This document shows, piece after piece, positions 4,399 through 53,683 of a DNA stretch of 64,000 bases (positions are counted from its first letter, which is position 1; each line of letters starts with the position of its first letter). Both the position numbers and the translations under genes were made by a program. The notes below the pieces were generated by a model. The model was not told the origin of the DNA and did not search any database. It saw nothing but the letters and a program-made list of their open reading frames with translations. Origin of the DNA: Tricharina praecox (Eukaryota); assembly GCF_024521635.1 (NCBI RefSeq), contig NW_026250441.1, positions 124,001 to 188,000 of the forward strand, read 5' to 3'.

Positions 4399-6538
4399 AT
4401 GGCTACCGTCGTTTTCGCCGCCAATAACGAATCCTACCGCAAACGCCGTCGCGCTCATCGCGCTTGCGAACAGTGCAAACGACGCCGCGTACGTCTGTCC
4501 GTCTTGCCTGCCCCCCTCCTGTCCTTTCCTGCCCCTTCCTGCCCCTCCCCCCCGTCGGGGCTGTCCCGGTCAGCTTCCGTTCCGTCGTCTTGACAGTTCT
4601 TCTGTCTCCGTCCGCCTGCTCGTTCTTCCGTCCGATCCGTCTCGGTGCTGTGCTGACTGTCCTCCCCCGGCCAGCGCCGCTGCGAACCCCCCTTCGAGAA
4701 CCATGACCGCTGCGCCGGCTGCACCCGGGATGGCATCGCATGCAGGTATATAGATACTCCACTCTTGGATGCCGTACCGATCCCCATCGTCGTCGTCGTC
4801 GCCGCTAATCATCGCCACCGCCAGTCTCGTGATCCCATCACCCTCGCCGAACCCTAACCCGCTGCTGCCCCTCACCCCGCCGCCGCCGCCGCCAACGCCG
4901 CCGGGTGACCATCCCGAGGCCTCGACTCGGCCGCGCTTCGTGGGCGACCTCAACCCCGAGTCCGTTTTCCTGACGTCCGCGGCGGTGCCGCAGCAACGGG
5001 ATCTCGCGGAATGCGGCGTGTGGGCGGTTCCCTCGCCGACGTCGCCGCAGCCACCGCCGCAGCACCACCAGCACCACCAGCAGCAGCATGTGCACCACCA
5101 GCAGCAGCACCACCAGCAGCACCGCCAGCACCAGCATAATCCCCACATACCGCCTCACCTGCCACGAGCGTACCTCACCTACCTCGACTCGATAGGCGCG
5201 TTCTCGTTGCCAACGTTACGCGCGCGGGAAGCACTCGTCGGTATCTTCTTCGAGTGTGTGCAGCCTTTGCTGCCACTACTGGATGAACCGGTGTTCCGCG
5301 ATCAGCACGCGAAGAGCACCGTCAGCATACCGCTTCTGCACGCGGTGCTGATGGTTTCCGCGCGATATCCGAATGCGGCTCGCTACCTTCCCGCCGGGGT
5401 GTCGGCACGGAGCTTTGCGCAGAGCACGGCCGACAAGGTGGAGGCGCTGCTGCATGGGGGCGTCGAGCGGGAGAGGCTGACGCTGGTGCGCATCCATGCG
5501 CTGCTGGCGTTTCACTCCGAGGGGCCGAGCGGGAACGAAATCGCCAGCCTGCACCTTTCCACCGCCGTGCACCACGCCTACTCCCTAGGACTGCACCTGG
5601 ACCGGCGCGTCATCAACCGCGAGGAGCTGCGGCTGTGGTGGGTACTGTGGGCGCTCGACGCACTGCAAGCCAGCCTGTGCGGGCGTCCCGTCGGCGTGCG
5701 ACGGGAAGACGTGTCCGTCCCCACGCCGGAGCAATGGGGCGAGCGAGGGCTCTTCGTTGCGGCAATGACCATCGCCGACGTGCTCACCGACGTCATCAAA
5801 CTCTACCGACCGGGCAACACGGTCTCGGGCTGGGAAGGCCCATGGATAACGCTCGAATCGCTCCTCCCGCCGGGCGGCGACACGGGCGTAGCAGCCAACA
5901 CCCTGCGGCTGTTCTACCACGCCGTCACGATCCTCTCCTACCGCTCCTCGTTCGCCTCCTCCTTCGTGTCCACCCACACCTCGGCCTCCTACGCACGGCG
6001 CATGTCCTCAGCACACGCCATCCTCGCCCTCTTCAGCGCCCCAAACAACAACCCCTTCCCCCCGCTTCCAGTAGTCCCGTACGCCGTCTCGCTAGCACTA
6101 ACCTCGTTCTTCTCCGCCCTCCGCGCCGACCCGGACTCCCCCCACACCGCGGAATACAAATCGTCGTTCCTGCGCGCCTGCTCCATCCTCGAGGAGCTGA
6201 GCACGTACTGGTTTTTCGCCGGTGCGATGGCCGCCATGGGGCGGCAGGCGATCGAGCGAATGGCGGTGAAGGAAGCTGCGGGCGTGCTGCGCGTGCTCAG
6301 TGGCAATGCGGGCGAGGAGCAGACTGTCAATGTCGGCGACGCCGGTGGCGGCGAAGACGGCGTCGAGGCGTGGTTCCTCCAGCTGTTTCCCGATTTGGCA
6401 CTGCCGACAGGACTCTTTGGCAATGGAGCGGGCGATGCCGTCGGCGCGTTGGGGTGGGAGGAGCCGGTGCAGGGAGCTGGGGCGGGGATGGGCGCGGGTG
6501 TGGGGGCGGGTGCGGGGGTGGGGTGGGGGGGTTATTGA
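4399..6538 (+). CDS. Zn(II)2Cys6 binuclear-cluster transcription factor with fungal-specific TF (Fungal_trans) middle domain, 3 exons (4399-4488, 4675-4745, 4825-6538), about 624 aa
   Basis: Splicing GTACGT(4489)...GCTGAC...CAG(4674) and GTATAT(4746)...GCTAAT...CAG(4824) reconstitutes RACEQCKRRRRRCEPPFENHDRCAGCTRDGIAC (six Cys). Downstream are FFECVQPLLPLLD, AVHHAYSLGLH and RLWWVLWALD...GRP motifs, plus a His/Gln tract. Confidence 0.92.
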
Positions 6539-6936: not shown

Positions 6937-7905
6937 ATGCTGTTCAACTTTTTCCGGCTCGCCGCCGACTTCTGCCATCTCGCGTCGAAGGCGATCCTGC
7001 TCGTGACGATCCACAAGCACCGCAGCGCCGAGGGTGAGCCCGACTGATCTCGCATACCCCCTCCCGTGCTGCATCATGCTAACATCCACTTTCCACCAGG
7101 CGTCTCGCTGCTAACCCAAGCGCTGTACACGCTCGTCTTCTTCACGCGCTACCTCGACCTGCTGTTTACGCCCCCGTTCATGCAGCCGTACAACACGATC
7201 TTCAAGATAACCTACATCTTCTCCTCTTTGTACACAGTCTACATCCTCCTGCGCGTCTTCCCACGCTCCCGCGAATCCGAATCGCAGTGGAAACTAGCGA
7301 TCTACCTCCTGGCCGGCTCCGCGGTCTCCGCACCAATCTTCCAATACTTCTTCTCGCGCGGCGCCGGCAGCTGGTTCCTAATTGAGACGCTCCGGGACTT
7401 CAGCCTGATCCTCGAGTCCGTCGCGGTTTTACCGCAACTAACCCTTCTCGCGCACACCTCCGTGCCCACAGTGCTGAATAGCTACTACCTCCTGGCACTG
7501 GGCTCCTACCGCGCGCTATACATCCCGAACTGGATTTTACGCGCGCTCGACCCCAAAGACCAGTTCCAGGAGCCCGTAGCGGTGCTCTTCGGGATCGTGC
7601 AGACGCTGCTGTACATCGAGTTCGCGTGGATCTACTGGCGCCGGCAGAAGGTGAAGCTGCGCGGCGGCGGGGGCGTGCTCGATGGCGAGGAGTTTGCGCG
7701 CGGGCTTGTTCTTGGAAGGTTGATTGGTGGGGGCGTCGGGAAGACGGCGCGCGGAGGGCAGACCGGGGGCGGCTGGAGGGGAGGCGGGATTAGTGTTTCC
7801 GCCGATGACTTTGTTGTTGATGAGGAGGAGAGTGATGATGAGGAGTTGCAGCTTGAGAGGGAGGATGACGCGGAGAGGGGCCTGATTGAGGGCGGGAGAG
7901 CGTAG
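6937..7905 (+). CDS. ERD2-like ER lumen protein-retaining (HDEL/KDEL) receptor family protein, 2 exons (6937-7033, 7100-7905), about 300 aa
   Basis: MLFNFFRLAADFCHLASKAILL...SAEG|VSLLTQALYTLVFFTRYLDL...FSLILESVAVLPQL...YLLALGSYRALYIPNW match ERD2 family motifs. Intron GTGAGC(7034)...GCTAAC...CAG(7099). Confidence 0.9.
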
Positions 7906-8911
7906 TGGGGGGTGGAGGGCGGTGGTGGAGAGGGGATTGGAGGGATGGTGGGATGGGATGAACAAGGGATTTGGATGTTTTTTTGATGAGGAAATGGAGC
8001 ATGGTTTATGTAACTGCGATAGCAAGCATCGGACGCGAGTGATGACAAGATCCCGCCAGCTCTTAAGCATCCTCACTTGGGGACCAGGGTCCAGTAACGA
8101 CGGGTGTGCGAGTAATGATCGGGGTAAAGAAAACTGGCAGTAAAGACGTAAGCCGAGCTCGGAATCAAGCGATACATTCGTCGCAGCCGGTACTGTGATC
8201 ATAGAGTATCACTCGGGTCTCAGTGCTTTGCTCACCCGTTGATGTCTTCAAACAGGAGAAGGAGCAAGCAGCGGCGCAGCGGCACAGTAACGAGCCCTAT
8301 TAGAGCTGTGTCTTCAGGCGAGGGTTGGTAGGAACCGCCGGGTGAGAAATCGCCAGTCTTGATAGGCCGTTTGCGGCAATGAGTTGATGTTCCCTGGTGG
8401 GAGGGAGGGAGATAGAGGGAGGCATGGAAGGAGCAAGTCCGAGAAATACACCTGTATTAGTCACAGCAGCTCTCCACGGAGTTACGGGCAACTATAGTAG
8501 TAAATACCGGATCCGGGACCGGAAATACCGAGGCCGCCAGTTGTTGGCATGCGGTCTTGCGGTCGGTCAATATGCCAATTTGGGGATGCGGAATAGGTCC
8601 GTCCTGTGCTGACGGTCCACTGATGGGCAGGTGGAGTTAACGTACATTCCATCAGTATTGGCGTATGTACAGCTGCATCCATTAGTATCGAGCAACTGGG
8701 CGGGTGGTGAAGTAGATTATCTAGGTGCAGCGTCCGCTGAGTTGAAGCACTCCATGAGTCCATGGCTGGAGTGATGATAACGGTAGGTAGTGGATTGAGT
8801 TACTGCCGCGAGGGGGACGGAAGGGTTGTTTAAGCATCATCGCACTCCACCTTCGTACGTAGATCATGGCAGCGAGGCACGCACCACTTCATAATTTCCG
8901 AATTCGCATAT

Positions 8912-9070
8912 CCAGCACGGAAAAACCCCCGCGTGGTCTAGTGGTTTAGACTAGGCAATCGGCGAGGGGAGTCAGGTCTAAAGCTCCGGGTTCAACCCAG
9001 GTCGACGAACTTTATATTCAGCTCTTGGGGTTTCCAAGCCACTCGCCGGGGGTGGTGGTGGTTTTTGTTT
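8912..9070 (+). ncRNA. tRNA-derived Pol III-type cassette (SINE head or small ncRNA), unit U0
   Basis: A box TGGTCTAGTGG 8934-8944 and B box GGGTTCAACCC 8988-8998, then hairpins CTTGG-ggttt-CCAAG and CCACTC-gccgg-GGGTGG, then TTTTT 9062-9066. No acceptor stem can be formed, so this is not a canonical tRNA. Confidence 0.5.
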
Positions 9071-9927
9071 TGGGCTTGAGGGTGGGAGCATACGCTATCA
9101 CTCGGTATGTGGCAAGTGACCCCACGCGCGGCTGGTTTTTTTTTGCAATGCTTTCGTAAACCTGGGAGGAGGTAGTAAGCTTGAGGCAACTCGCTCACAG
9201 CACTGGCTTTATAATATCTCCAGCCTCCGCTTGTCTTATCATACTCAGAACCTAGGATTTGTCGTCACAGGTGAGCTCACCGGCTTTCTATACTTTTGCT
9301 TGTGTCGGCCCGAGGCGGATGGGTAGGGGAACTGGTGCGCCGCATGGGACTGGTCTGTACCGGGGCTTTCACCTGGACTGGCCACGGCAGACAGGAAACG
9401 GAGGCCGTGGGTTCGCCATAGTCTAGAGAGGCTGCATGCGAAATAAAACAGGAAGATCTCTCTCTATCTCTCTCTCCAACACAGGGGTAAGCAAGCAGCA
9501 GCCCAGCAGCGAACTGCTCGGCAGCAGTGTATTCAGACGGAGCCGGTAGGAAATGGCGAATAAGATTCAGGAAATCGTGATGGTCGTGACAGCCGTTTGC
9601 GACAATCAGTTGGTTTTCCCAGGAGGGAGGGAGGGAGGGAGGCGGCGCGCAGCGGAAACTAAGCTGTGCGCGGGCGAGAGGTGTTCCCTCCCTTATTTAG
9701 TCGGAGTAAAGAGATAGCTAGTCATACCTACTATACTCATGAACTATTGGCCTGCCGTCCAGTGATCGGTGGCTATGAGATGAGGAATACGTCCGGTGCT
9801 GTGCTGAAGGTCCACCTTTACACATGTGGGGATAACTTATAAGACTCCATCAGTGTATAGCTACGGTATTGACTATCCCGGGACGGGGTGGCACACACCA
9901 CTTCATAATTTTCAAAATCAAGTCTCT

Positions 9928-10086
9928 AGCACGGAAAAACCCCGCGTGGTCTAGTGGTTTAGACTACGCAATCGGCGAGGGGAATTGAGTGCAAAGTGCC
10001 GGGTTCAAACCAGATCAACGAACTTTGTATCCAGCTCTTGGGGTTTCCAAGCCACCCGCCGGGGGTGGTGACGGTTTTTGTTTTTG
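9928..10086 (+). ncRNA. tRNA-derived Pol III-type cassette, unit U1
   Basis: A box TGGTCTAGTGG 9947-9957, B box GGGTTCAAACC 10001-10011, same two hairpins, TTTTT 10075-10079. Confidence 0.5.
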
Positions 10087-10766
10087 GCAAGACGGGTGCA
10101 ACATTGGTTCTCACTCGGCAACTGACACACCTTGCGCTGCCGGTTTTTTTCATGTTCAAAGAAACGACTCATAGTCAGACCGAAGTACTCATTTCCAAAA
10201 GTGTTGTCCTAGATGTGATGCAATTTGGTGCGTACAGTTCAGTTGCAACATGTAGATGAATAAGGTGGACTTTGTCCGGTAGGAAGGGCTGCTATAGTTG
10301 CTTCTCGGACGTTTGCCTTCTACCATCTTCACGCGTGAGCTGGTTACATACGCTGCCGGCCCGAGTCATGTATCCGGGAGTAGGTAGTACACGTGAGCCA
10401 GCTCGCCCACAGCGCTGGCTTCATGATATATCTGCAGCCTCCGCTAGTCGTACTCGGAACCTGGAATTTGTCGGAATAGGTGAGATCGCCGGCTTTCTAT
10501 ACAGGATCGGGGCTGGAGAGATTGTAGGTGTGTCTTCCATTGAATAGATACCGCCGGATCGCTAGATAAAACCACTTCTTCCGTGCTCATATCATCCCTC
10601 CCACATCATCCTTCTCTAGACTTCCAAACACCTCACGAACACAATAAAAACCTCCAGAACACATCACACACAATCAAAACCTTCAGCGCCCATCACCGCG
10701 GGTCTTTCGAACTCTTTCTAGACTCGGTACCCTTTTTCAACCAACTACCCTCAAAACACAAACGCA

Positions 10767-10922
10767 ATGGGTGGCAGAACGTCACAGAGTCGCGTTTACT
10801 TGTGGAGATGCGACAATTGCTCGCACAGTAACAGCATGAACTCCCGGACGTGCGAGCAATGCGACAAGCGCTGTTCGCGCAGAGCCTGGGTCTCACACTG
10901 TGAGGCCGAGTTGAAATATTAG
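10767..10922 (+). CDS. RanBP2-type zinc-finger microprotein, copy 1 (51 aa)
   Basis: Hand translation: MGGRTSQSRVYLWRCDNCSHSNSMNSRTCEQCDKRCSRRAWVSHCEAELKY*. Exact W-x-C-x2-C-x3-N-x6-C-x2-C. A/C-rich leader CAAAACACAAACGCA-ATG. Frame conserved in 3 paralogs. Confidence 0.72.
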   Translation: MGGRTSQSRVYLWRCDNCSHSNSMNSRTCEQCDKRCSRRAWVSHCEAELKY

Positions 10923-12452
10923 ACTTACTAGTAGGGCGCGCTAGGGATAGCGTCTTCCCTGGATGGGCGGTCTGCGCAGGTTTGGGTAACTTTCTCTGTT
11001 AGGTTTGCGGGTATTTCTGTTGCGTTCGATGGTTTTTTTTAATGTCTTTCGTGTTGAAATTCCTTGCTGTTGTTAGATGTTGCACGCTTGAGTGCTGGGA
11101 GTCTGACTTTCTTGTTTCTTGGTGTGTACATAGGTCGCTTCCTCATATCCGTCTTCTGACGTGCCGATTGTGCATGTTTCCAGTATCAATCTTTCCTGAT
11201 TTTCCAAACGTTTTGAATTCCATGTTTCTACAATAGTGACAGTTATGGTTCCGGATTTCTGCAGATATCGAATTGGGTGGTAGGCTGCTAAGCAGCAACG
11301 GACAGTGGTGGTCGAGCTTTCTCTCGACCCGTGGAGCTGGCAGGAAAAGTCGGGGCGTTGGTGGTCGCCACAGTCTATTCAACGAACTGATGCCATATCA
11401 TATACGGCTGCGAGTTTCTATAATGATACATGTATGCATCTCGTGTGAGTTTTTGTCGATACATACCGGCGGCCAACCATAAGCAGGCCGGCTGCTAACC
11501 CCTCGAGGGTCCTTTACTATCCACCTTGCATTTTAAACGCCTTTCTCCCGGAGTTGAGGAAACTCGGTGGTCAATTCAAGATGGCTTCAAGGCCGTTTGG
11601 CAACCCACTTCCCATTACCGCAGGAAGAAATTTTGCTGTATTTGCGCTTTTCTTGAAATCTACGAAGCCATGTAACCCAGTTTTTTAAAATGTGGGTTTG
11701 ATTAAAGTCTTCACCATACACACCAACAAGCTGCCGAAGGTAGAGTCCGCAGTTTTTTGCTACCGTAGGTCTGAAATGTAATTAACACCGCCTACTTTTG
11801 CCAAAAGAAATCTCAAAAATCGCTTTTTATTACCCGCTTTGTAATTAATTCGATTTTTTCATCAATTTTATACCCCATTGACTCAATGAGTCCCCTGCTA
11901 TACGGTAAAATTGACTTCAGGTGGGACTAGCAGAAAATGTCGGGCAAGAAGTCGCCACAGTCTTGACAGGCCGTTTTGACCGTTAGTTGATGTTCCCATG
12001 AGGCAGGGAGGAAGGGAGGAAGGGAGGGAGGAAGGGATAAAGGAGTGGAGCAAGATCAAGACTTCGCACCTCCAATCCCATCGTCCGAAGTAGGTAGCCA
12101 AAGCAGCTCTCAAGTCTCCACTGACAACCAGTAAATACCGGATCCAGGACCGGGTACATGAAGGCCATGCATCGTGTTATGGTGCGGGCGTCGCGCAGTG
12201 AGCGGAGATCAAGCTAGGGCCTTGTGAGTGAGGGTGGGGGGTGTTCTCTCACTCCCTCACTCGCTCGTTTAGCTGAGGCCCGGGAATGAAGAGATACCTT
12301 ATAACCATGGTTAAGCACTACCTCTTTAATACGCTCTACTTGTATCGCCGGGACAGGCCAGGACGTAGGGTAGGGGAGGCCACACCTGGTCGCCGGCTGC
12401 AGGTTGAGTTACGCGGGGCACCTATCACTTTATCATTTTCGAATTCATGTAT

Positions 12453-12616
12453 CCAGCATGAAAAAAACCCCGCGTGGTTTAATGGTCAACAAGCTGGGCC
12501 ATGCAATCGACAAGGGGATTTGAGCGCAAAGATCACCGTCCAAACTCAGGTAAAACTTTTTTGTATTCAGCTATTGGGGTTACCAAGCCACCCGCTGGGG
12601 GTGGTGATGGTTTTTG
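12453..12616 (+). ncRNA. Degenerate tRNA-derived cassette, unit U2
   Basis: A box TGGTTTAATGG 12475-12485, B box decayed (CCGTCCAAAC), hairpins and TTTTT (12611-12615) retained. Confidence 0.4.
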
Positions 12617-13040
12617 TTGGCCGCAGGGACACAGCTGCCAGCATGGGATATCACTCGATGCGTGACTCGGCTTCCGCTCCAGTCTCCCCTAGTCGTATTC
12701 GCAACCTGGAATTTGTCAGAACAGCTGCGCTCGACAGCTTTCTATTGATCATACCGGCTGATGGGCTTTCAGGTGTGTATTCCATTCAATAGATACCGGC
12801 GGATTGCTTGTTAAAACTCCTTCTTCCATGCTCACATCCTCCCTCCCTCATCATCCTTGTCTAACCTTCGAAAACACCCCACGAACAGAATCAAAACTTT
12901 CAGAACACATCACACACAATCAAACCCTTTAGCACACATCACCGGTCTTTCGTTCAACTCTTTCCAGACCTCAGTTTACATCACCCCGGCTCCGTACCAT
13001 CTTCCAAGTTCGAGCTAAATACCCTCGAGGCACAAACACA

Positions 13041-13211
13041 ATGAGTGGCAGAACTTCAAAGCCTTGCGTTTACTTGTGGAGATGCGACAATTGCTCGCAC
13101 AGCAACAGTATGAACTCCTGGACGTGCGAGCAATGCGGCACGCACTGTTCGCGGAGAGCCTGGGCCGCACACTGTGAGGCCGAGTTCAAATACTATCAGA
13201 CTTACAAGTAG
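13041..13211 (+). CDS. RanBP2-type zinc-finger microprotein, copy 2 (56 aa)
   Basis: MSGRTSKPCVYLWRCDNCSHSNSMNSWTCEQCGTHCSRRAWAAHCEAEFKYYQTYK*. ATG context CACAATG. Gap-free alignment to copy 1. Confidence 0.7.
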   Translation: MSGRTSKPCVYLWRCDNCSHSNSMNSWTCEQCGTHCSRRAWAAHCEAEFKYYQTYK

Positions 13212-13870
13212 GGCGTGCTAGGGATAGCGTCTTCCCTGGATGGGCGATCTTCGCGGGCTTGGGTAATTTTCTTTGTTAGGTTTGCTGGTATTTCTGTCTT
13301 TCTGTTAGGTTCGATGATTTTTCTGTCGTTCGTGTTGAAATGCTTTGCTGTTGTTTGATGTTGCACGCTTGAGTATTGGGAGTCTCGTTTTCGTGTTTCC
13401 TAGTTTGTACATAGATCGCTTCCTCATATTCGTCCTCTGACGTGCCGATTGTACGTGTTTCCAATACATATAAATCTTTCTTTCCGTTTCCAAAAATTGT
13501 GAATTCCATAGTTTTTTACCATTATGACAGCTGAAATATCGGGCAAGAAGTCGCCACAGTCTTGACAGGCCATTTTGACTGTTAGTTGATTTTCCCATGA
13601 GGCAGGGAGAGAGAGGGGAAGACCAAGATATCGCACCTGAACTGGTTGAAGCAGCTCTTCACGGACAAGTATAATAGTAAATACCAGATCTGCGAGGATC
13701 GAGGCCGCTGCAGCGTGGTGTGCGGCGTTGTACTGCCAGATTTGTGCTGCCTGCGTCGCGCAACGAGAGGAGCCAAAGCTGTGGCCGTGGGGGTCCAATG
13801 GACGGCACTTAGTCGCTGTTCTCGTCCGTCACGGAGCATGCACCAATTCATAATTTCCGAATGCATATAT

Positions 13871-14060
13871 CCAGCACGAAAAAACCCCCGTGTGGTCTAG
13901 TGGTCAACAACCTAGGCCACTCAATCAACGAGGGGAGCTGAGTGCGAAGGTCACCGTTCAAAACTAGGAAAAAGGCCGTTTTATTCAGCGCTTGGGGTTT
14001 CCAAGCCACCCACCGGGGATGGTGATGGTTTTTGGTTTTTGGTTTTGGTTTTTGGTTTGG
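13871..14060 (+). ncRNA. tRNA-derived cassette, unit U3
   Basis: A box TGGTCTAGTGG 13893-13903, B-box-like CCGTTCAAAAC 13954-13964, hairpins, then an expanded (TTTTTGG)n tail 14029-14060. Confidence 0.42.
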
Positions 14061-14764
14061 TAGCACGGGTGAAGCATGGGAAGTCACTCAGTACCGGAAA
14101 CCTCACACGCTTCTAATAAGGTGGACTTTGTTCAGTAGGGCTGCTATCTTTGCTTCCGCGCGTGTGCCGTCAACCATATCCTACCTAGCCTTGAGTTTGT
14201 ACTTGCAGCTACCTCAAGCAAACCGCCAGTCTGGCCGGCTACTTCTCACGGGCCGATGGAATACTGCTCTGATGTAACGCTGATGGACTTCGGGCTCATC
14301 GTCTCGGTGTCGGTTAGAAGGATTTACTGGCGATCCTATAGAAAATCATTGGGAACCTCTAGCATATCCCTAGGGGATGTTTCTGAAGCACGTGTCCAGG
14401 CTCGTCAGCGGTCCATATGCCGCGAATGCCACCACAGCAACAGCCGATTGCCGGCTTTCTATCCATGATACGGGCTGGAGGTATTGTAGGCGTATGTTCC
14501 ATTCAAAAGATACCGCTGGATCCCTGGTTAAAACCCTTTCTTCCGTACTCACATCGTCCCTCCCCCATCATCCTTCTCTAACCTTCAAAACTACCTCACA
14601 AACACAATCAAAACCTTTAGAATACATTACACACAAACAAAACCTGCAGAACACATCACCACCGGTCTTTCGAACTCTTTCTAGATCTCAGTTTATTTCA
14701 CCCCGACTCGGTACCTACCACCTTCTTCCAACCAAGTTCCAACTACCCTCAAAACACAAACGTA

Positions 14765-14926
14765 ATGAGTGGCTGAACGTCAAAGCCTCGCGTTTACCTG
14801 TGGATATGTGCGTTTTGCTCGCACAGCAACAGTATGAGCTCCCGGAAGTGCGAGCAATGCGGCAAGCACTGTCAGCAGAGCGATTGGATCGTACACAGGG
14901 AGGCCGAGGAAAAATATTTGCGTTAA
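14765..14926 (+). pseudogene. RanBP2-type zinc-finger microprotein, copy 3, premature TGA at codon 4
   Basis: MSG*TSKPRVYLWICAFCSHSNSMSSRKCEQCGKHCQQSDWIVHREAEEKYLR*. TGA at 14774-14776 where copies 1 and 2 have AGA. Confidence 0.7.
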
Positions 14927-16392
14927 GGCGCGCTAGGGATAGCGTCTTCCCTGGATGGGCGATCTGCGCGGGTTTGGGTAACTTTCTCTATTGGGGTTCA
15001 ATGATTTTTCTGTCTTTCCTGTTAAAATGCGTTGCTGTTGTTTGATGTTAGACGCTTGAGTCTCGGGAGTCTCGCTTTCTTGTTTCTTGGCTTGTAGGTC
15101 GCTTCTTTGCGCGCTTCGCCGGCGCTGACCGGCGGGGGCATGGGATGTCACTCGGTACGCGACACGTGACAGGAATAAAAATCCAGCTCCTCGTCTCTGA
15201 CGCCCGTGTTTTCTATATCCTGCTTCACGCCCTGACTCCTACATGTTCCTAGTCCATTGCCGATAAGGCCAAACTCTGGGTGAGGACGCTAGGTGCGGTG
15301 GGGAGGAAGAGAGGCGAGGTCTCCACCATCTCGCTTTCGTCTCCCCTGGCTCTTGCTTCTCTCTTTTCTTCTACCCTCGCCGCCCTTTCCCTCGCCACTT
15401 TCCTCGCCCCTGACCTCTCTGATCTTTCTATGATATGTGGGGTTCGCTTCCAGGTCAGATTCCAGAGGTCTGACACGGGGGTTTCGTTGTGTCTTCCGTT
15501 CCGACGGGTGGTACCCCCCGCTGTACGTCTATAGTTTAAAGCAACGCACGCACTGCGTAGCAGCCATCCCCATTCTTGTCTTTTCCCCTCCTGCTCCTTT
15601 TTCTTACCTTCGCCCATAGGGGTTTCTGCTTTGCTTTCCATTATGGGTAGCTCATAAAGAGCTGGGGTGTGGATTATGTACTGGCACCACCAAAATCGCG
15701 CTGAGGGAAACCCGCGGCAAATCTGCTCACAACCCACAGGCGCTATCGAGTAAATCTGGCAAATCTAGGAGTTAGTTGAGTGCCTGGCGGATGCTTTTGG
15801 ATCACGTGTCCAGGCTCATCGGTGGTAGATACACCGCCAATGCCGCCGCAGCACAAGCGGATTCCGTTCCAGGGTAGTAACTGTGAAGCGGATATCCGCT
15901 CTAGTATAATAGATGAAGAATAATGGCCGCGTACGTTCCGTGATGACCGGCATTTCACCTCTGTATGAGCCGCATGGCTTTCTCGACTACAGCCGGGACT
16001 GTTTTTTTTGCTGAGCATGAGTCGAGCCGGCTCTCTCCTACGCTGTCACTTTTGCTTGCCATCATAGTCGGAAGCTGGGATTTGTCGGTTGGGAGGTATT
16101 GTATAACAGGTGAGCTTGCCGGCTTTCTATTCATGATACCGGCTGGAGGGATTGTAGGCGTGTGTTCCATTCAAGTAATACCGCCGGATCCCTAGTTAAA
16201 ACTCCTTTTTCCGTACCCACATCGTCCCTCCCCCGTCATGCTTCTCTAACCTTTGAAACTACCTCACAAACACAATCAAAATCTTCAGCAGACATCACCG
16301 GTCTTTCGAACTCTTTCCAAATCCCAGTTTACTCACCCCGACTCGGTACCGTCTTCCAAGTTTCAACCAACTACGCTCAAAACATAAACGCA

Positions 16393-16560
16393 ATGGGTGC
16401 CGAATCGTCAAAGCCTGTCGTTTACATGTGGAAATGCATCATCTGCACGCACATGAACAGTATGAGCGACCAGTGGTGCGACCAATGCGGCAAGCGCTGT
16501 TCGGACAAAGCCTGGGCCGCACACAAGGCTGCCGCGAAGCGATATAAGCCCTATGGATGA
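16393..16560 (+). CDS. RanBP2-type zinc-finger microprotein, copy 4 (55 aa)
   Basis: MGAESSKPVVYMWKCIICTHMNSMSDQWCDQCGKRCSDKAWAAHKAAAKRYKPYG* (3' part of track ORF 16162..16560). Same ATG position and leader as the paralogs. Confidence 0.75.
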   Translation: MGAESSKPVVYMWKCIICTHMNSMSDQWCDQCGKRCSDKAWAAHKAAAKRYKPYG

Positions 16561-16894
16561 TTGTTCTTTGGATGGGCGATCTGCGCGGGTTTGGGTAACG
16601 TTCTGTTGGATTCGGTGATTTTTCTGTCTTTCTTGTTTTAATGCCTCGCGATTGTTTGATGTTGCACGCTCGAGTGTTGGGAATCTCGCTTTCTCGCTTC
16701 ATGGCTTGTAGGTCGCTTCTTTGCGCGCTTCGGCGCTTCCAAATATCCTTCCTCCAACCTGCCGATTGTGCGTGTTTCCAGTACTATGAATCTTTCTTGC
16801 TTTTCCAGACATTGTGAGTTCCATGATTCTACCGTTGTGACAGCTATGGCTCCGGGTTCATGCAGATATCGTATCGAGTAAGGCTGGCGACGAT

Positions 16895-17127
16895 CAGTGT
16901 TCTACATAGACCCGACCGGTCGGCCGACCGATCTGGTCAGTCGGGATATATCCCGACCCGACTTTGGGTTTTGTCCGTCGGGATAAAATTAAGTAGACGT
17001 GACTTAGGGTTTAGTAGGTCGGGATATATCCCGACTCGACCAGACCTAAAATATTTTGGTCGGGATATATCCCGACCCGGCCAGACCATGCCCAAATTTG
17101 GTCGGGACTGGTCTATGTAGAACACTG
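16895..17127. mobile_element. MITE / non-autonomous TIR element, hAT-like CAGTGTT termini, 233 bp
   Basis: Perfect 18-bp TIR CAGTGTTCTACATAGACC (16895-16912) / GGTCTATGTAGAACACTG (17110-17127). Three internal palindromes GTCGGGATATATCCCGAC (16940, 17018, 17059). No TSD visible. Confidence 0.8.
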
Positions 17128-19386
17128 AACCTTTTATCCTTTTCCTCGCTCATTCTCTGGACTCCGCCCATTTCTTTCTTTTACGTACCCTCTGTTGAAT
17201 GTGTGCTAAGGTGCGGGGGCCGGGGTGGATGTCGGAGAGTGAGGAGGTTGAATGGTGGGGAAGCGGCGAAGTGAGGTGGTGTGGTAGTTGAGTATTGGGG
17301 TGGTAGGGGAAAGAGTATGCGCGGATGATCTAGGCGCAAAAGGGAGGATCTATGTAACGCTCAAACAGCAGTTTTCGCTCGTAAAATTGTTCAGCCCCCC
17401 TCGTCAGACCACTCAGCGATCGTGCGGGAGACCTTTCGGTCTTCCGCTGCATGTCGGGCCCACGTATCTGCCGTCGCGTTCCGGGGTATGGTTACTCTCC
17501 AGGTATACCTAGAGTACAGTGTGGTATGTATGAGTGATGTTTACGATGGCGATACACCTCATGTCACTCGAGCCTTCCGCAGCCGTGTGAGGGTCTAGTT
17601 GACACTTTCGGGTGCGCTAACCTGACATCACAATTCATGCCTCTGTACAGGGTCACGGTACTAGTAACTGGTGACCCGGGGGCCGGTTCTCACCCATCCG
17701 AGAACAGAGCACCACCGCTCACTCGTCACTAGCACAGCTTGGCCAGACAATGCACGGACGGCAAAGTGGCGTCTATGTACTGATCGTGGATGATTCAGCT
17801 GGTGGCTGGCTGGACGATGGCCACAGTTAACTAGAGTAGGTACTCTAGCCCTCATCTGTTAAGCAGGCAGATGTCGGATTTCAAAGTCCGGGCCGGAGTC
17901 CCGAAGCTGTACACTTCCATCCCATCGTATGCTCCCCGGCGGCTGGGATTCGAAATACTCACCCACATCCCCCCGTCCTCCTCCTTCGCGCGGAGATGCA
18001 TATTTCAGCGCCGTCGCCGATGTTTCTCTCTCTGTTTCTCTCTCATCTCATCTCGTCTCGCCAGTCGAAATCGAAATTCAAAATCGAAATCGAAACACAC
18101 ATCCCACGTTCGGGCCGTGCGTGGGTGAGGTGAGCGGCATGCGCTCGTGATCCCTGTCCAAGCAACCCTTCCGCCTCCCCGCGCGGCTCCGTTTCTGACG
18201 TGTCAGATTTTTGTAGCGCCCACGCCGAATTTCTGCCCTCCTTGGGGGCGGGGGGGTTGGGTACGTGCTAGTGTGTAGTGTGAGGCCTTTTCTGCCTAAT
18301 ACGTGTTCTGGAGCGGTCGGCGATGAAATGTGCTAGCATATGGCAGGTGGCGGGGGGTACTGCGTCCTGGACTGGTTCGGTGGAGGGGCGAGGGGTGGAA
18401 ATGAGAGGCGCTGGACACCTCGCTCGCTCGCTAACTGAATCGACGCGGAAGGGCTGTACCGCGCCGTACCGTACCGCACCGTACGGATCATCGCTCCTTA
18501 TCTGTCAAGCTGCTGCTGACGACGACGATTTGGAATTGTTGACATGACGATAACTAGATGTCTATGTGCTCTACTCTGGATACATGATACATGATCCATG
18601 ACACCTACATCACGCACCGGCAGTTCAGTTCAGTTCACATGCTCTTGGCTCGAGCTCGTTATCTGTTCGTAAATATCGGGATAATCAACTAGGTATGTGC
18701 TCCACAGTAGTTGCTGGACCTCCACGCGGCAGATCCAGCTCGACACGTCGTCGTCGCTCGGACTGCATTCCCGAGGAGATGTATTGGACAGCGGAGAGTT
18801 CCGCTGTGGACAACTCGCTCATGCAAGATCATAGGTACTCTACACATCTATTCTACTCTAGCAGCGGCGAGATTATGGGGGATTCACCCGGACCCGGGGG
18901 CCGGATATCGATAGAAAGTCAATCGTACATATGTAAGTGCTTTCACGGGTGCGGTACCGAGCAGTGCGAGTGGGGGGCTGGCATTTACCATGACCAATGA
19001 ATAGTCTCCTCTAGGGAAACGAAGCAAGCCACAGGGCCCGGGGGAACAGGGAGTCGCGACGAGTGATCGGCAGTGAGCTGGCGGTGGTCGGTTCGAAATC
19101 GGACTGTTTAGGTTCGGGCCTGACAGTCCCAGGCTCTCACTCAGCAACTTTTAAATTCTCGACTGGTACAGCCTGCGAGTCTGAGGTGAAATTGAAGCTG
19201 CCGATGATTTGCCTGTTCCGGCACGGCGACGGGGTCCGGAGCGGGATGAACACCGTACCTATGGTACATATCACTCTCGATGTGGCGCGGGCCCGAGGGA
19301 AGCCACGGATACATACTATACTACCTATGCCCGCTGGGGATGCGTGGGGTGGAGGGTCAGCACCATGGGAGGTGACTCGGTGATCT

Positions 19387-28596: not shown

Positions 28597-29503
28597 ACCG
28601 CGCTCCGCGGGGCTGCCACCAGCGACTCTGCGAGCAAGGCAAGGCAAGAAAAGCACCAAGTCATATGTACAATACATATCCGCACGGAGACTATCCAGCC
28701 GAAGAGGCCGTGCGCTTTACTATGTACTCTATGTACCGGTACATGGGTGGATCTACTAACTAGTAGTAGTGATAGTGCTAGTAACTACTCTACTAGGTGG
28801 ATGGGTGGATACTAGCATCCATCCGGCGCTCTGCGGATATCAAACAGACTGCGCACTTCGACCTGCGGACTGGAACTACATACGGACTGGGACTGGGACT
28901 GCGGACTGGGACCACGGACCACGGACTGCATATCCGTTCCGACTCCAGGGAGCACATCAGGCTGCAGCCTTCAAATTTTCTTCACGATGATCATCGTTCC
29001 TACTAGTTAGAGGAGGACCTGGGTCTGGGGTACCTAGGCGAGCACTGCCGACCGAAGTGGCGGACATGAGCTCGCTCGCTCTATGATAGATATGTGCATA
29101 CATATCATACTAGACTTAGGCACGTCGCCGCTTATGTATGTATGTAGAGTATGTGCCTGCACCTGCCGGTGGCGGCGGGCACTTATGTACGTATCTGGCC
29201 GACCGGGCCAGGTATGTACATAACGACGTGTTCTTTTTTTTGTTTCTTTTTTCTTTCAATCATTCCCGCACGTGGACGACACTGGCAGTAGATGATGGGT
29301 GAAGTATTTCCTTTGCTCCTTGATAATCATAGTTATCATAGCCATAGCATACTTTAGAAACGCCGTTTCTACACTACATGTCGTAATCTGGAGTCTGGGG
29401 GACTGGATTATCCTATCCTATCCTATCCAGCCAGCCCGGGGCGGCGAGAAGCCAGCCAGCAGAGAGAAGAAAGAAAGGAAAAAGAAAAAGAAAAATACCT
29501 AGC

Positions 29504-29544
29504 CGAGAGAGAGACAGAGACACGGAAACAGAGACAGAGACAGA

Positions 29545-29592
<48 letters not shown>
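29504..29592 (+). repeat. (GA)n / (GAGACA)n microsatellite
   Basis: Direct reading. Confidence 0.95.
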
Positions 29593-29599
<7 letters not shown>

Positions 29600-30230
29600 A
29601 AATGACCAATCAGAACCCCCACCATCCCCCCATCCCATCCGCCTTCCCATCCCATCCCCCGGAAACACGAGACCCGAAAGGAAAGAAAAAAAAGAACCTG
29701 ACATTAATGAACAAAGAAAACAAAAAAAAAACAGTCGACGGACCAATGCTAGTAGCTGCCAAATGACCCAGGAAATTTGTTTGGAAGAAAAGAAGGAGAA
29801 ATTGGAAAAAGAAGAAAAGAAAAGAAAAGAAAAAGATTGAAGGATCGAAAATGTCGAGAAAATAAAAGAGAAATAAGTAAAACCCGTTACCCATATATAA
29901 AAATCACAAAAATCAAAACATAAAAGGAAAAGCCAACAGAAAGAAACACCATCCCCACCCCTCCTATAGAAAAGAAAAACCCCTTCCCCCCCACCCCCAA
30001 ACCCACAAAGCAGAACCACAGTAACACCGATATTTGCCTGAGCAACCCCAATTTAGTTAAGTAGATGATGATGATGACGATGACGATGGAATAGTTGAAA
30101 GAAACGACGACGACGACGGCGAAGAGTGATAAGGAAAAGAAGCGTTTCGATGTTTGCGCTGGTGCGTATGTTGATGTTGATGTTGATGATGTTGATGTTG
30201 ATGTTGAAGTTGCGACCGACCGGTGACCCG

Positions 30231-31250: not shown

Positions 31251-31293
<43 letters not shown>

Positions 31294-31396
31294 GAGAGGA
31301 GAGGAGAGAGAGAGAATTCTGCGACGGCGGCCAAACACGTACCGACAGTGGTTGCCACTCCTGAGCTTCCGTGACTCCTCCGTGATAGCTGTTCAT
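30231..31396 (-). CDS. Myb/SANT-like two-repeat DNA-binding protein, 3 exons (31396-31343, 31205-30636, 30542-30231), about 311 aa; start codon uncertain
   Basis: Phase-0 introns 31342-31206 (GTACGT...ACTGAC...TAG) and 30635-30543 (GTATGT...GCTGAC...TAG) give a His-rich N-terminus, an NLS-like KRRK, WTMTEDDNLLLKLKDEEGLPWKAIAQRF...LQMRYKRLK and a second repeat WEVEDIQYLKEAKEHIEKQKWELISQRM...CEKKWKEI. Confidence 0.85.
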
Positions 31397-32362
31397 GACT
31401 CTGTAGCTGTTTGCGTGCGCCAGCACGTCCTGTAGGTCGAACGTGGTTGTCGACGAGAACACTGTCGGGTACGCTGCACTGGAGTGTGCGGATAGCAGCT
31501 GATGGAAAGCCGGTGCCCACGGTAAAGACCGTGGTATAACTTCCAGTTCCTGAATTTTGATTGATTTTGGGGGGGAAGACGTGGGAAGAATTGAGTCCCG
31601 TATCTTTCTTCCAGATGAAGAAAGAAATCGCTGGGGGGCTGTGGATGTTGTTTGAAGTTCGTTCTCGGTGGATGTCGGTGACTAGTAGGATGGAAGGGCC
31701 GATCTGTAGTGTTGAAGCGCTTGGTCGTAGGCGGATGGACAAAGTGTGGAGACGAGGAGGGTGATGCTGCGGGAGAGGATGGATGGCAGGATCTTTGGCG
31801 GCTGTCGGATCGGATATGTAGTGGCAGTGGTAGTAGTAGTAGTGATGGTGGTAGGGTAGTAGTAGTGGTAGTAGTGGTAGTAGTAGTGGTAGTGGTGGTA
31901 GCAGTGGCAGTAGTAGCAGCAGTGAGGATATGAGGCAGTCAGAAGAGCTCTCGGAGGCGGGCCGCAGCTGCTAAATAGCTATGCGATGCGATGTGGAGTA
32001 GGAAGTCTGTGGTTTTAAGTGTACAGCCCAACAGCGGTACCGCGAGCAGGTAAGTGGTGAGGATTGCGAGAACCCTGGCCGTGGATGGGATGCAGTCGAT
32101 GTTACACGGCAGACGAGCGAGGGAGCAAGCATAAACTCGGTTCTTTCAAAGATTGTCCCTAACTGTCTTTGCTTTTTTCTTTATTTTTCTTTTGGCCTGT
32201 GCAGTCAGTGAACTGCGGCCCCCCCCCGCCACCACCCTTGTCGCATCCCCCTCCCACCCCCCCCCCCCCCCCCCCCCCCCCCATGCGCTCCCATACACGT
32301 CCGATAGAGCGAACAGCGAGTAATATGTAAGTAAGTCAGTGCTTGCTTAGTTGTGGATGGGA

Positions 32363-32484
32363 GAGAGTGAGAGAGTGAGAGAGTGAGAGAGTGAGAGAGT
32401 GAGAGAGTGAGAGAGTGAGAGAGTGAGAGAGTGAGAGAGTGAGAGAGTGAGAGAGTGAGAGAGTGAGAGAGTGAGAGAGTGAGA
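32363..32484 (+). repeat. (GAGAGTGA)n octamer repeat, about 15 copies
   Basis: Direct reading; about 1 kb upstream of the Myb-like gene. Confidence 0.95.
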
Positions 32485-33099
32485 AGGTTGCGCAGGGGCC
32501 GCGGCGGTTTCCTTCCTCGTGGACGGCCAGCCCATGCCATGTCCACCGTTCCTGCCTGCTTGCCTGCTTGCCTGCCTCTGCCTACCTGCACTGCTTGCCT
32601 AGAGTACCTGCCTGCCGGGTCTCCGTCGTCGTCAAGTCCGAGTCTCCCTATCGTCCATCCTCCGTCCCCCGTCTTCCGTCTCCATCCCCGTCCTGTCCGA
32701 GGGGCACGCCCTCTTTCGGCGAAAACATTCGTTCGTTCTCGACTCGGAGTTGGTCCACTGATCTTCTTGGTTAGCTCGGAGCCTGGTTAGAGTGGTTGGT
32801 TAGTTAGCGATCCCATCTGGCCAAGGAATGCCCGGTACGGCCCTCGACTTGTCTGCGTTTCACAGCCCAGCGTCTCTAAGCGCCCCTGTTTGTCCCCTAG
32901 AGCTGCGCTTGACAGGGTCACCACGATGCCTAGGTAGCGACCACCGTGATCCTTGACCCGACGTAGACTCCGACTCTCCCTTTCTCTGCCTCGAAAATCC
33001 CCTCTCTCTCTGCCTCGAACATCCCCTCTCTCTCTTCTCCCTCCTCCTCCTCCCCCGTTCCGCGTGAATCCCTCGGGGTGGGGGGGCCAAACGGGCTGG

Positions 33100-39980: not shown

Positions 39981-40107
39981 AAGAAAGGAAAGAAAGGAAA
40001 GAAAGGAAAGAAAGGAAAGAAAGGAAAGAAAGGAAAGGAAAGAAAGGAAAGAAAGGAAAGAAGAAAGGAAAGAAAGGAAAGAAAGGAAAGAAAGGAAAGA
40101 AAGGAAA
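39981..40107 (+). repeat. (AAGGAAAGA)n polypurine nonamer repeat
   Basis: Direct reading. Confidence 0.95.
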
Positions 40108-50900: not shown

Positions 50901-51462
50901 AGTGCAATATTTTCATATCAATAGCAAAGCCTAGATAAAGCCACTTGATCCTTTCACACTACATCAGCTTTGAAGGAGCCCTTTGAGCTTCACTAGTCTA
51001 TGTGCTTGCTACCCCAATCAGGGTTCACATGACTAACAACAAACAAGTATTAAACTAAAGTCATAGATCGGCTTGAATTAGGGATCAGGTTCTACTCCCG
51101 ATGTCCGCCTCAAAGTCTGACTCGCGTGAGCCTTTCGTATCAACCGTAGATCTTATCATGGACATGATAAGACTACTGGCACTGTCCAAAGAGTTTTGAG
51201 TCTATTAGGCCAGAGCACCGAAGCAAGCCCATCATAGTATATCACTCGCACAAACCCCGTTGGTGAACATCCTCACCGGTTGCAAGCGGCAAAACGGTGG
51301 CCGGCGGCCTTTAGCAGGCCCTTCGGGATATAAAGTCGGCTCCAGCAAGGGCTGGGATAGTACGGCGGATAAGGACTTCGTCTGTGCAGAAAAAATTGAT
51401 CGTATACAGTCCTCGGATATACGTCCCCAGCCATTACTTACTACTGGATACCGTTAAGAATT

Positions 51463-52200
51463 TGGAGCAGTGGCCGTCACAATTGATGAAGAACCATAGA
51501 ATTCACAGTGATAATAAAAGCATGAAAGATTCATAACGGAAACGCGCACAGTCGGCACATCGGAGGACAGATACGATGAAGCGCGGAAGTGCGCGTAGAC
51601 GCAACCTACACACCAAGAAATATGAAAGTGAGACTCCCAACACCCGAGCGGCCGTCAGAGAAAGTTACCCAAACCGGAGCACATCGCCCATCCAGAGAAG
51701 AATTTATCCCTAGCGCGCCCTAGTAGGGCCTATATTGCTGCGCGGCAGCCCTGTGTGCCTACCAGACCCTGTACAAACAGCGCTTGCCACATTGCTTGCT
51801 TGTCTGTCGAAGCCATCCGCCGGGGGTGGTGGTGGTTTTTTGGCATCAGCGATTGCGGGAGCACTAGATGTCACTCGGCACGTGGCACGGTATTCGCTGC
51901 TGGTTTTTTGAAGGGTAATCTTCATTGCTTTCGACTGCGCTAGATCATGCAAGCTTACATATCCGCTTCCACCCGGCTGTTACCCCTAGCCGGTGCCCGC
52001 GAGCTCGATACCGGTTCCATATTGCGCTGCGCCTTGCCCTCCCCGTAAGTCAACCCTCCCTGCTCCCTCCCCGTCCAACCATCTCCATTTAACCCGACAG
52101 AAAGAAAGAGTTACAAAGCCGGCGCTTTCTATCCATGATACGGGCTGGAGGCATTGTCGGTGTGTGTCCCATTCAATAGATACCGCCGGATCGCTAGTTG
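51463..52200. pseudogene. Scrambled dispersed copy of the 8-17 kb array unit
   Basis: 51463-51797 is the reverse complement of the ORF 3' half plus 3' region (KQCGKRCLYRVW*AHRAAAQQYRPY*, 51797-51720). 51810-51910 (+) matches the hairpin/T-run end of the Pol III cassette and the block after it. 52118-52200 (+) matches the promoter-like block at 14451-14535. Confidence 0.8.
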
Positions 52201-53683
52201 TGACATGTGGAACCCGGAACTTTCTCCCAGCTCCCCTCGCCGGTTGCGTGGCCTAGGTAAGAAGGATGTAGTTGACCTCTAGACCATTCCGTGATGGATA
52301 CTTGAATTCGAAGATTTTAAGGTGGTGGGGGCTCCGCTGCGCGGTGGTCAATAACGTAGGGGTAGAGTACACCATCACCGACGGAAAGTTAGATAGCTAG
52401 TATACCTATCCAGCAGTTCAACGTCAGCACAGGACGGACGTATTCCGCATCCCCAAATCCCCAAATCCCCAAATCCTCTTAGCCACCAACCGTAGGACCA
52501 TAAGATCGCGGGCAAATATCTAGTACATGACTATAGCTAGTACGTAGGTATATCTTCGCCCCCGGCTAAACGAGTGAGGGGACACCGCGCGGTCTCTGCT
52601 GCGCGACGCTGGCACCACAACGCAGTGGCCTCGATGCTCCCGTTCCTACATCCGGTACTTCCGGTGTCCGGACTCCGTGGAGATTCGCTTCGGCTAGTTC
52701 AGGTGCGATTTCTCGGTCTTGCTCCTGCCGCCCTCCTCGTTGTCAGGCCCACATCCAAAACAACCGAGTTGCATCGTCGGCGAGGTTACAAATATCTGCT
52801 CACGGTCAAGCAGGAGGCAGACGAAGTAGTAGCGGAAACCTAAAAGTGGCTTGCGGCTCGTTTCTACTACTTGAAAACAAGACATGTCGTGACTGGGAAA
52901 CATCTAGCATGGACCAAGAGCCCCGTCACAGCTCCGAACACGTAGTTAGCCATCTGCTGCTACCTAGGTGAGTGTCGCGAGGAGATCTTGGGGCGTCTCT
53001 GTGGCCTCAGCGGTACCGGTGTCCTCGCTGTTTGAAGAGTCCGCGTTGCCGAGTCAATCAGAAGCGAAGGATCTTGGGTTCCCGCGCCGCCATTTCTCTT
53101 CGCTCCCGTACGAGTCTACCACATGTTAACGAGGAACAGTGAGTCCTCCCACGCCCCCGACGACCACCGCGTAAAACGCAACTTGAAGGGGTTCCCTCCG
53201 CTTCCGCATTCAAAATCCATGCCGGGAGTGCTGAGAAAACGCGGGAGTTTGGTGTCCAGGAGGAGAGCCCGAGGTCCCGAACGGTTCCCGTTGCGTGAAC
53301 ACTGCCAACTCCACCGGGCCGTCAGTCACCGCCACCCAAGAAGGACCTCCAGTGGAAAGACACCTCGCCGCAGGAATTCATCTGCGTGGTCTCGTTTTCG
53401 ATTTTAGTTAATATGCATCTAGGCCACGGCTTAACTGAAAACTCGCAGCTGGCCTGTACGACTCCAGACGTGCTGCATAGTAGCGATACATTGGGCTGAA
53501 ATGAATGAAGTCGACAGCATCTCTTCAATCAAATCAAAGCGAAGCGATACAAAAGACACGAACCGCAAATCCCAGCTCTTCTTTCCCCGACTAGACAACA
53601 AAGACCGACTCGAAAGCACATCCGCGATGTAGAAAAAAGTAAATCAGCCATCAGTTGCCACCAATCACGTGCACTCACTCTAA

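Follow-up and report, generated by a model that had tools for sequence, protein, structure and literature searches.

An array of a zinc-ribbon micro-gene and a SINE-like Pol III-type repeat in Tricharina praecox: probable origin by ordinary tandem duplication

Unequal crossing-over with birth-and-death evolution is an established general mechanism for the formation of tandem arrays, and the wtf drivers of fission yeast, a gene family compared below, are multi-pass membrane proteins made from overlapping transcripts. Among dispersed repeats, the fungal short interspersed nuclear elements (SINEs) described in PMC5063351 are 140-493 bp long. Here we analyze an array at 8.3-16.9 kb of a 64-kb stretch of the Tricharina praecox genome (contig NW_026250441.1, positions 124,001 to 188,000; hereafter “the window”), the units of which (U0 to U4) combine a short cassette bearing RNA polymerase III (Pol III) box-like motifs with an open reading frame (ORF) of 51-56 codons for a putative zinc ribbon. 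A preliminary description had proposed either a non-autonomous mobile unit with a cargo micro-gene or a birth-and-death micro-gene family spreading through a Pol III repeat. We favor, with a probability of about 80%, a lineage-specific tandem amplification of the micro-gene with a passenger repeat, by ordinary tandem duplication, followed by birth-and-death decay.

A blastn self-comparison combined with a repeat search resolved the region into tandem blocks of fixed order, with four entry blocks, four cassettes and four gene blocks (Table 1). The gene blocks are 69-79% identical to one another, with E-values down to 0, and the cassettes 73-80%. Measured from entry to entry, the units are about 1.0-2.4 kb long, and U1 is lengthened by a 640-nt spacer insert. 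Much of the preliminary description was borne out: there are about five diverged units with 51-56 codon ORFs; U0 has no ORF and keeps a promoter remnant (9164-9293) only; the U3 ORF is stopped by TGA at codon 4; the cassette core is gone from U4, where a 40-nt flank vestige is left at 15131-15171; and the scrambled further copy is located at 51422-52729, where cassette fragments (52207-52304 on the minus strand, 51807-51840 on the plus strand) lie with the 3' half of an ORF (51723-51806, minus strand). In agreement with it, we saw no transposase or reverse transcriptase in the array, the three listed array ORFs of at least 130 aa being without a Pfam match at E ≤ 0.01, and no clear termini, as the units abut with no recurrent boundary repeat. 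Elsewhere in the 64 kb we found neither a solo cassette (nhmmer with a cassette profile) nor a further zinc-finger ORF (tblastn).

The whole unit, including unique spacer, has been duplicated, with similar divergence across the blocks (69-80%; one entry pair 91%), and at 13532/13534 the U2 3' block is joined directly to the U3 entry block. Cassette and entry blocks are most alike in the pairs (U0,U1) and (U2,U3), gene blocks in the pairs (U1,U2) and (U3,U4). This shifted pairing register argues for repeated unequal exchange within the array and not for insertions of a discrete element. The array cassettes have flanks in common (about 8872-8908 upstream and 9079-9142 downstream) that are absent from the dispersed copies described below, and the cassette-less U4 still keeps 40 nt of the array-specific downstream flank. 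The joint 12609>15144, which bears on the deletion of the U4 cassette core, was seen in one contig of the sequencing runs considered below. As a separate observation, a (GGGA)n/(GGAA)n polypurine tract closes every entry block (8396-8425, 9622-9651, 12003-12052 and 13600-13621), and these tracts may be a hot spot for misalignment in unequal exchange.

Table 1. Features of the array, its relic and its downstream border (window coordinates).
Feature	Position	Strand	Remarks
U0 entry block	8309..8431	+	(GGGA)n polypurine end; self-matches to 11912-12035, 13540-13690, 9571-9637; repeat families D11, D13
U0 cassette	8872..9142	+	dispersed Pol III-type repeat, core 8908-9078, plus array-specific flanks
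U0 cassette motifs	8872..9142	+	A-box-like TGGTCTAGTGG, B-box-like GGTTCAACCCA, two hairpin-forming blocks, T-runs (read by eye)
U0 promoter-block remnant, gene body gone	9164..9293	+	130 nt; 79% identity to 10376-10502; homology stops at 9293
Other very abundant short dispersed repeat in place of U0 gene	9294..9473	+	from contig depth
U1 entry block	9571..9637	+	blastn self-comparison
U1 cassette	9890..10150	+	core 9919-10093
U1 gene block	10432..11273	+	promoter, CA-rich leader resembling a 5' untranslated region (UTR), ORF, T-rich 3' block
U1 ORF	10767..10922	+	51 aa, MGGRTS start, zinc ribbon
Spacer without counterpart at U2/U3 junction	11274..11911		partly AT-rich; zero self-matches (blastn)
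U2 entry block	11912..12035	+	91% identity to 13534-13621
U2 cassette	12413..12618	+	core 12446-12625; A- and B-box motifs degraded
U2 gene block	12677..13532	+	79% identity to U1 across 861 nt
U2 ORF	13041..13211	+	56 aa; Ser in place of Gly2
U3 entry block	13534..13690	+	abuts U2 3' block directly
U3 cassette	13836..14042	+	core 13864-14040; B-box motif degraded; (GGTTTTT)n tail expanded
U3 gene block	14439..15121	+	blastn self-comparison
U3 pseudo-ORF	14765..14926	+	TGA at codon 4 (14774-14776); zinc ligands kept
U4 vestige of cassette downstream flank, core deleted	15131..15171	+	40 nt; matches 9081-9120, 12641-12669, 14074-14107 (blastn)
U4 gene block	16105..16892	+	blastn self-comparison
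U4 ORF	16393..16560	+	55 aa, MGAESSK start; among window copies top tblastn identity to 5/5 outside relatives
Scrambled, partly inverted relic of one unit	51422..52729	mostly -	entry piece, cassette fragments, inverted promoter piece, ORF 3' half, 3' block
Miniature inverted-repeat transposable element (MITE)-like element, downstream border of array	16894-17128		24-nt terminal inverted repeats (92%), internal GGTCGGGATATATCCCGACC palindromes

Does the cassette occur apart from the gene? With the best-conserved cassette 18-mer we found 50 metagenome-contig loci (L001 etc.), of which 18, resembling the cassette in the 18-mer only (blastn E ≤ 1e-6), were treated as chance matches and left out of later counts; the cassette core of about 190 bp is present in the other 32. 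In each of these the homology is limited to the equivalent of window positions 8908-9072 (two loci also match 9407-9473, part of another repeat), and not one has an entry, promoter, ORF or 3' block at the same threshold. A zinc-finger ORF was found at none of the 50 loci, either by tblastn with six family proteins (best E 0.098) or by a six-frame motif search. By common flanks the 32 cassette loci form 12 groups, and the gene neighbors of solo cassettes are unrelated: a prephenate dehydratase (L014), a GCP5-type gene (L032), a PLD-like ORF (L021) and a weak reverse transcriptase fragment (L045). We also aligned the contigs of two window-bearing DNA runs to positions 7000-18000 at 80% likeness. 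Single-copy parts have a depth of about 5-8 in these runs; over the cassettes 10-19 contigs of differing sequence align (summed depth 80-285), over the ORFs 1-2. The cassette is independent of the gene. The preliminary description had named independent occurrence as one half of what would count against its composite unit, and on that half the data are plain, with 32 loci lacking the ORF and a many-copy cassette versus an ORF of one or two copies.

Some further observations concern the surroundings of these copies. The dispersed copies combine longer flank modules variously, with three upstream and four downstream flank families; modules are shared among L008, L015, L019, L028, L032 and L041, among L016, L021, L024, L030, L034, L036, L038 and L044, and among L018, L022 and L040. 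In the organism of these loci the cassette thus appears to sit within a mosaic of other repeats. In run X1, a 1078-nt contig joins pieces resembling the promoter (14468-14715), the ORF (16361-16545) and the spacer that follows U1 (11335-11489) at about 85% identity, so that this spacer recurs beside a paralogous gene copy. The sample would therefore contain one or more additional gene-bearing paralogues, or else a variant of the array.

To describe the cassette we used the Pol III consensus sequences TRGCNNAGTGG for the A box and GGTTCGANNCC for the B box. From 5' to 3', the dispersed copies contain a TATA-like TTTATGA, about 30 nt, an A run and CCCCCGCG-TGGCCTAGTGG, and TGGCCTAGTGG matches the A-box consensus perfectly. 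The B-box-like GGTTCGACCCA lies about 45-55 nt past the A box, within a hairpin with a 5-nt loop, and is followed by the hairpin-forming blocks CTTGGGGTTTCCAAG and CCACCC....GGGTGG and then by GGTTTTTGTTTTTG. The downstream bodies vary by subfamily, one of which ends in A9-10. The window cassettes are 70-82% identical to these copies and more eroded: their A and B boxes each show one or two mismatches by eye, the B-box core reads CGTCC in U2 and CGTTC in U3, and the A-box-like motif of U2 has two mismatches. By motif match, the cassette carries putative internal Pol III A/B-box-like motifs. The proposed tRNA origin found no support beyond these motifs. ARAGORN detected no tRNA in the window or in 14 L loci, Rfam gave no tRNA or other family on the window cassettes at gathering score or E ≤ 5 (8200-17200), and there was no Rfam match on the cassette at E ≤ 1 in 10 L loci.

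The consensus fold has a T-arm-like hairpin with a loop of 5 nt, and RNAalifold on 19 cassette copies predicts helices in which a double change occurs in one of 37 pairs, that is, with almost no covariation. Direct repeats of at least 8 nt across plausible ends are missing in 13 of the 17 copies with enough flank; the other four have single, unrelated 8-9-mers at inconsistent positions, and U2 (8-mer) is the only one among the four window copies. At the 5' end the cassette is not sharply bounded, pairwise homology starting 110-160 nt before the anchor, while at the 3' end homology stops sharply, 50-60 nt after the anchor, at a T-run. The 45-50 nt or so upstream of the A-box domain, including the TATA-like TTTATGA/TTCATAA, are conserved among dispersed copies and between both organisms. 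This fits poorly with a retroposed SINE, because those 45-50 nt would not be expected in a copy retroposed from a Pol III transcript. Since we found no tRNA match, no consistent target-site duplication and a conserved upstream stretch, we classify the cassette, as far as its sequence goes, as a SINE-like, Pol III-type dispersed repeat rather than a proven SINE. Literature listings contained no description, at the level of their entries, of a Pezizomycete SINE of this kind. One dispersed copy, L001, has a 17-nt ATGAAAC(A)10 insert in its 3' body, about 105-135 nt past the 18-mer anchor and flanked by a 13-nt direct repeat, CATTATCACTAGA. The insert resembles a retroposed copy of the A-tailed subfamily, severely truncated at its 5' end, and so hints at active machinery of the long interspersed nuclear element (LINE) type in that organism.

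The ORFs of U1, U2 and U4 and the U3 pseudo-ORF all encode the motif W-x-C-x2-C-x3-N-x6-C-x2-C. The best Pfam match is that of U4 to PF00641 with 20.7 bits; the others reach 11.2 and 9.9, all under the gathering cut-off of 27, and family relatives score 13.5-13.6 bits. Searching 1.84 billion representatives exhaustively with an HMMER profile, we obtained 46 matches at E ≤ 0.001, five of them full-length short relatives: P0004, P0008 and P0009 (58-60 aa), P0019 (with an upstream extension) and P0006, a 101-aa protein of Tricharina praecox encoded on a different contig from the window. Eleven others of the remaining 41 that we inspected (including P0001, P0005, P0007, P0010, P0030, P0031 and P0043) match in the ribbon only, and the match range of the rest covers the ribbon span at most. 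P0006 runs 40 residues beyond the end of the 58-60 aa relatives (...AAANQA, then unrelated sequence), and an intron or the true stop has probably been overlooked in its annotation. A word-indexed protein search with U4 gave zero matches, and the family profile returned the same five relatives only; in the ESM Atlas we found generic zinc-ribbon clusters only, below 0.9. No description of the protein family appeared among the entries of literature listings.

Across the eight aligned proteins (three intact window ORFs and five relatives), M1, S6, Y11, W13, C15, C18, N22, C29, C32, C36 and H44 are invariant, and the window ORFs are otherwise 30-50% identical to the relatives. An MGxxxS start, with Met1-Gly2 and Ser/Thr at position 6, is the classical N-myristoylation context. 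The family shows this context by motif: Gly2 occurs in seven of the eight proteins, namely two of the three open window ORFs and all five relatives (taking the internal Met45 start in P0019), and Ser6 in all eight. Some relatives have a C-x4-C second knuckle. AlphaFold on the family alignment (predicted local distance difference test score 76.8) gave two short hairpin strands and a helix at residues 38-50. The top Foldseek rows are RanBP2/NZF fingers (YAF2, RanBP2, Nup153, RYBP, MDM2/4, TRABID, Npl4), with a root-mean-square deviation of 0.7-1.5 Å over 24-29 columns and a best E of 0.28. The predicted micro-protein would consist of the MGxxxS start, a RanBP2/NZF-like C4 ribbon (C15, C18, C29, C32), the conserved C36 and H44, and the C-terminal helix. 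We take the ORF to be a real gene of an uncharacterized Pyronemataceae-type micro-protein family of 58-60 aa, and the window gene, on its sequence, to be a diverged paralogue of that family.

Selection on the ORFs was estimated with Nei-Gojobori counts over 51 codons in four sequences. The ratio of nonsynonymous to synonymous divergence (dN/dS) is 0.51 for U1-U2, and the ORF of this pair diverges less than its flanks (11% vs 18%, p = 0.04). ORFs in pairs with U4 diverge more than their flanks (27-29% vs 17-22%; p = 0.06, 0.13 and 0.002). These values, drawn from few sites, are only suggestive of fast change around a conserved metal-binding scaffold, or of relaxed constraint in some copies. We rejected repeat-induced point mutation as the main cause of divergence: transition/transversion ratios are 0.5-1.8, and there is no strong C:G>T:A bias.

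We envisage the history of the array as follows. The dispersed SINE-like Pol III-type repeat would have landed in the upstream spacer of the gene before amplification. Unequal crossing-over or replication slippage would then have amplified gene and spacer, copying the cassette passively. During the decay that followed, U0 would have lost its gene to another repeat, U3 would have gained its stop and U4 lost its cassette core; U2 and U3 would have suffered erosion of the B-box-like motif, and a piece of a unit, scrambled, would have come to lie 35 kb away. This order of events is our inference, and so are the myristoylation of the protein, its targeting to membranes and the binding of partners through the ribbon.

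Several points weigh against this account. Evidence for copy number in the organism's own genome comes from runs labelled as soil metagenomes, in which other organisms or relatives may add depth, and the 32 solo cassettes belong to a different organism or to several, with cores 70-82% identical. A second locus with cassette and gene may exist elsewhere in the genome, which we viewed through the 64-kb window and the run contigs, and the relic at 51-52 kb does hold pieces of both together. As to the gene, pairs with the U3 pseudogene have a dN/dS of 0.76-0.81, and U4 reaches 3.55, 2.16 and 1.51 against U1, U2 and U3 (Fisher p 0.034, 0.15 and 0.64). Gly2 is missing from U2 and the C-terminal tail from U1, and certain copies may therefore be in decay or have lost their function. 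The protein collections that we searched did not contain the window ORFs, which thus appear to be unannotated. A metatranscriptome run of the same study gave no contig on 7000-18000, which is uninformative either way on expression.

A composite non-autonomous element, in which cassette and micro-gene move jointly and the array is a series of nested or adjacent insertions, would account for the constant block order of four to five units and for a scrambled copy 35 kb off with pieces of both parts. Against such an element, which we regard as highly improbable, stand the absence of the other blocks from all 32 solo cassette loci, the seamless junctions without termini or a direct repeat of at least 8 nt at a consistent boundary, the register shifted between cassette and gene blocks, the failure to find a transposase or reverse transcriptase, and the existence of the ORF family as an ordinary small gene in other fungi. 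Of the earlier interpretations, the mobile unit with its cargo gene finds no support at the solo loci, and the birth-and-death micro-gene family stands, with its conserved family, the losses in U0, U3 and U4, and the relic. The idea that this family spread through the Pol III repeat fared less well. It would have recombination between Pol III repeats, or between the adjacent polypurine tracts, seed the first duplication and the later ectopic copies; a multi-copy cassette family does offer substrates for ectopic exchange, each unit has one cassette and one (GGGA)n entry tract, and the relic at 51-52 kb is broken and inverted exactly around cassette fragments. However, the duplicated segment takes in unique spacer on both sides of the cassette, the array is closed after U4 by a MITE-like element and not by an extra cassette, and the process is indistinguishable from exchange anywhere in the unit, so that we consider this course quite unlikely.

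Tandem duplication also bears on whether the cassette serves the gene. Its orientation is constant and in U1-U3 its anchor precedes the ATG by 0.46-0.77 kb, as might be expected if it were kept there as a non-coding RNA (ncRNA) partner, insulator or enhancer, yet co-duplication accounts for this spacing. Moreover, U2 (CGTCC) and U3 (CGTTC) have eroded B-box-like motifs, the U2 A box has two mismatches, U4, the ORF closest to the outside family, lacks the cassette core, solo cassettes adjoin unrelated genes, and covariation in the consensus fold is confined to one of 37 pairs; a coupled module is accordingly very hard to credit. The array ORFs might instead be dead relics, a pseudogene cluster without present function, as their missing annotation, the stop in U3, the loss of Gly2 in U2 and of the C-terminal tail in U1, and dN/dS values not clearly below 1 for most pairs would allow. 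We find this unlikely, if less so than the other alternatives: the three open copies keep all 11 family-invariant residues despite 50-70% amino-acid divergence, three of four frames remain open after 20-30% nucleotide divergence, and the U1-U2 ORF is better conserved than its flanks.

A bolder view of the same locus, which we put forward as improbable, would see an unannotated lineage-specific expansion of a predicted myristoylated, membrane-anchored zinc-ribbon micro-protein under positive selection, with the scaffold fixed and other residues outpacing synonymous sites and UTRs between U4 and the U1-U3 clade, and would make the cassette a new family of structured ncRNA genes, spreading along with an upstream promoter of its own, and not a retroposed SINE. 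If true, positive selection would point to a role in conflict, for example in allorecognition, as part of a killer/antidote pair, or as an effector directed at a host or competitor.

The array is bordered upstream by a gene for an endoplasmic reticulum-retention receptor (ERD2; 7180-7902, PF00810). Near it, a Tricharina praecox protein matches the 589-aa ORF of a fungal transcription factor (4769-6535) at 100% identity, and the next best named matches are in Sphaerosporella, Pyronema and Trichophaea; on this evidence the window belongs to T. praecox (Pezizales, Pyronemataceae) or a near-identical fungus. The MITE-like element at the downstream border has many copies in the runs, at a depth of about 180 with 12-20 contigs; a weak Rfam match to MIR7504 (31 bits vs a cut-off of 83) reflects no more than the hairpin. 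The repeat at 9294-9473 reaches a summed depth of about 900 in bin 9202-9568 and of 5309 at position 9428, with 70 contigs, and contigs have loose ends at 9294, 9410, 9447 and 9465; a (CT)n tract lies at its end. It is unrelated to the cassette, has zero Rfam matches, is matched also in L015 and L034 (blastn), and in L032 a repeat of this type directly follows the A-tail of a cassette subfamily (by eye). The window further contains long purine-rich microsatellites at 32353-32492, 29493-29616, 31254-31321 and 39935-40130, with (GAGAGAGT)n of about 140 nt, (GA)n and (GAAAG)n-type arrays.

A composite mobile element of Pol III cassette and cargo micro-gene would have been remarkable, and it fails testing. 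What the locus offers is a whole tandem micro-gene family that gene callers missed despite relatives in other fungi, which points to under-annotated micro-proteins in Pezizomycetes. The family, with its MGxxxS start, RanBP2-like ribbon and helix, has no above-threshold Pfam model and no described function, and may evolve fast here. The cassette adds a dispersed Pol III-type repeat that is absent from Rfam and whose conserved upstream leader is at odds with the usual picture of tRNA-related SINEs.

How does the locus compare with known systems? The closest described fungal class to the cassette that we found is AfuSINE2 of Aspergillus fumigatus, of the tRNA-related group (PMC5063351); both are short and dispersed and have Pol III A/B boxes followed by an unrelated region. 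Unlike that group, the cassette has no tRNA homology detectable by ARAGORN or Rfam and has a conserved upstream leader, and we found no consistent target-site duplications in the 17 copies searched. The C4 spacing of the window ORFs is like that of RanBP2/NZF fingers (PF00641; Nup153, RanBP2, YAF2, Npl4, TRABID), which also head the structural matches of the model, if at E-values of 0.28 or worse; the micro-protein differs in being stand-alone, in its MGxxxS start, its additional Cys36 and His44 and its helix, and in its Pfam scores below the cut-off. NZF fingers contact ubiquitin through a Thr-Phe pair, which is not conserved in the micro-protein. The analogy to wtf drivers drawn in the preliminary description finds no support in the protein: in contrast to their multi-pass membrane products, the micro-protein is a soluble-looking zinc ribbon of 51-56 aa, predicted to form two short strands and a helix at 38-50, with no hydrophobic segment, and the sole likeness is that of a small, fast-evolving gene family beside repeats. 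The closest parallel is with tandem arrays shaped by unequal crossing-over and birth-and-death evolution, with which this array shares head-to-tail units, even divergence, a shifted register, dead or truncated members and a passively carried repeat; it differs from the usual tandem gene arrays in that its unit is a micro-gene of 51-56 codons, from an uncharacterized family and in unannotated copies.

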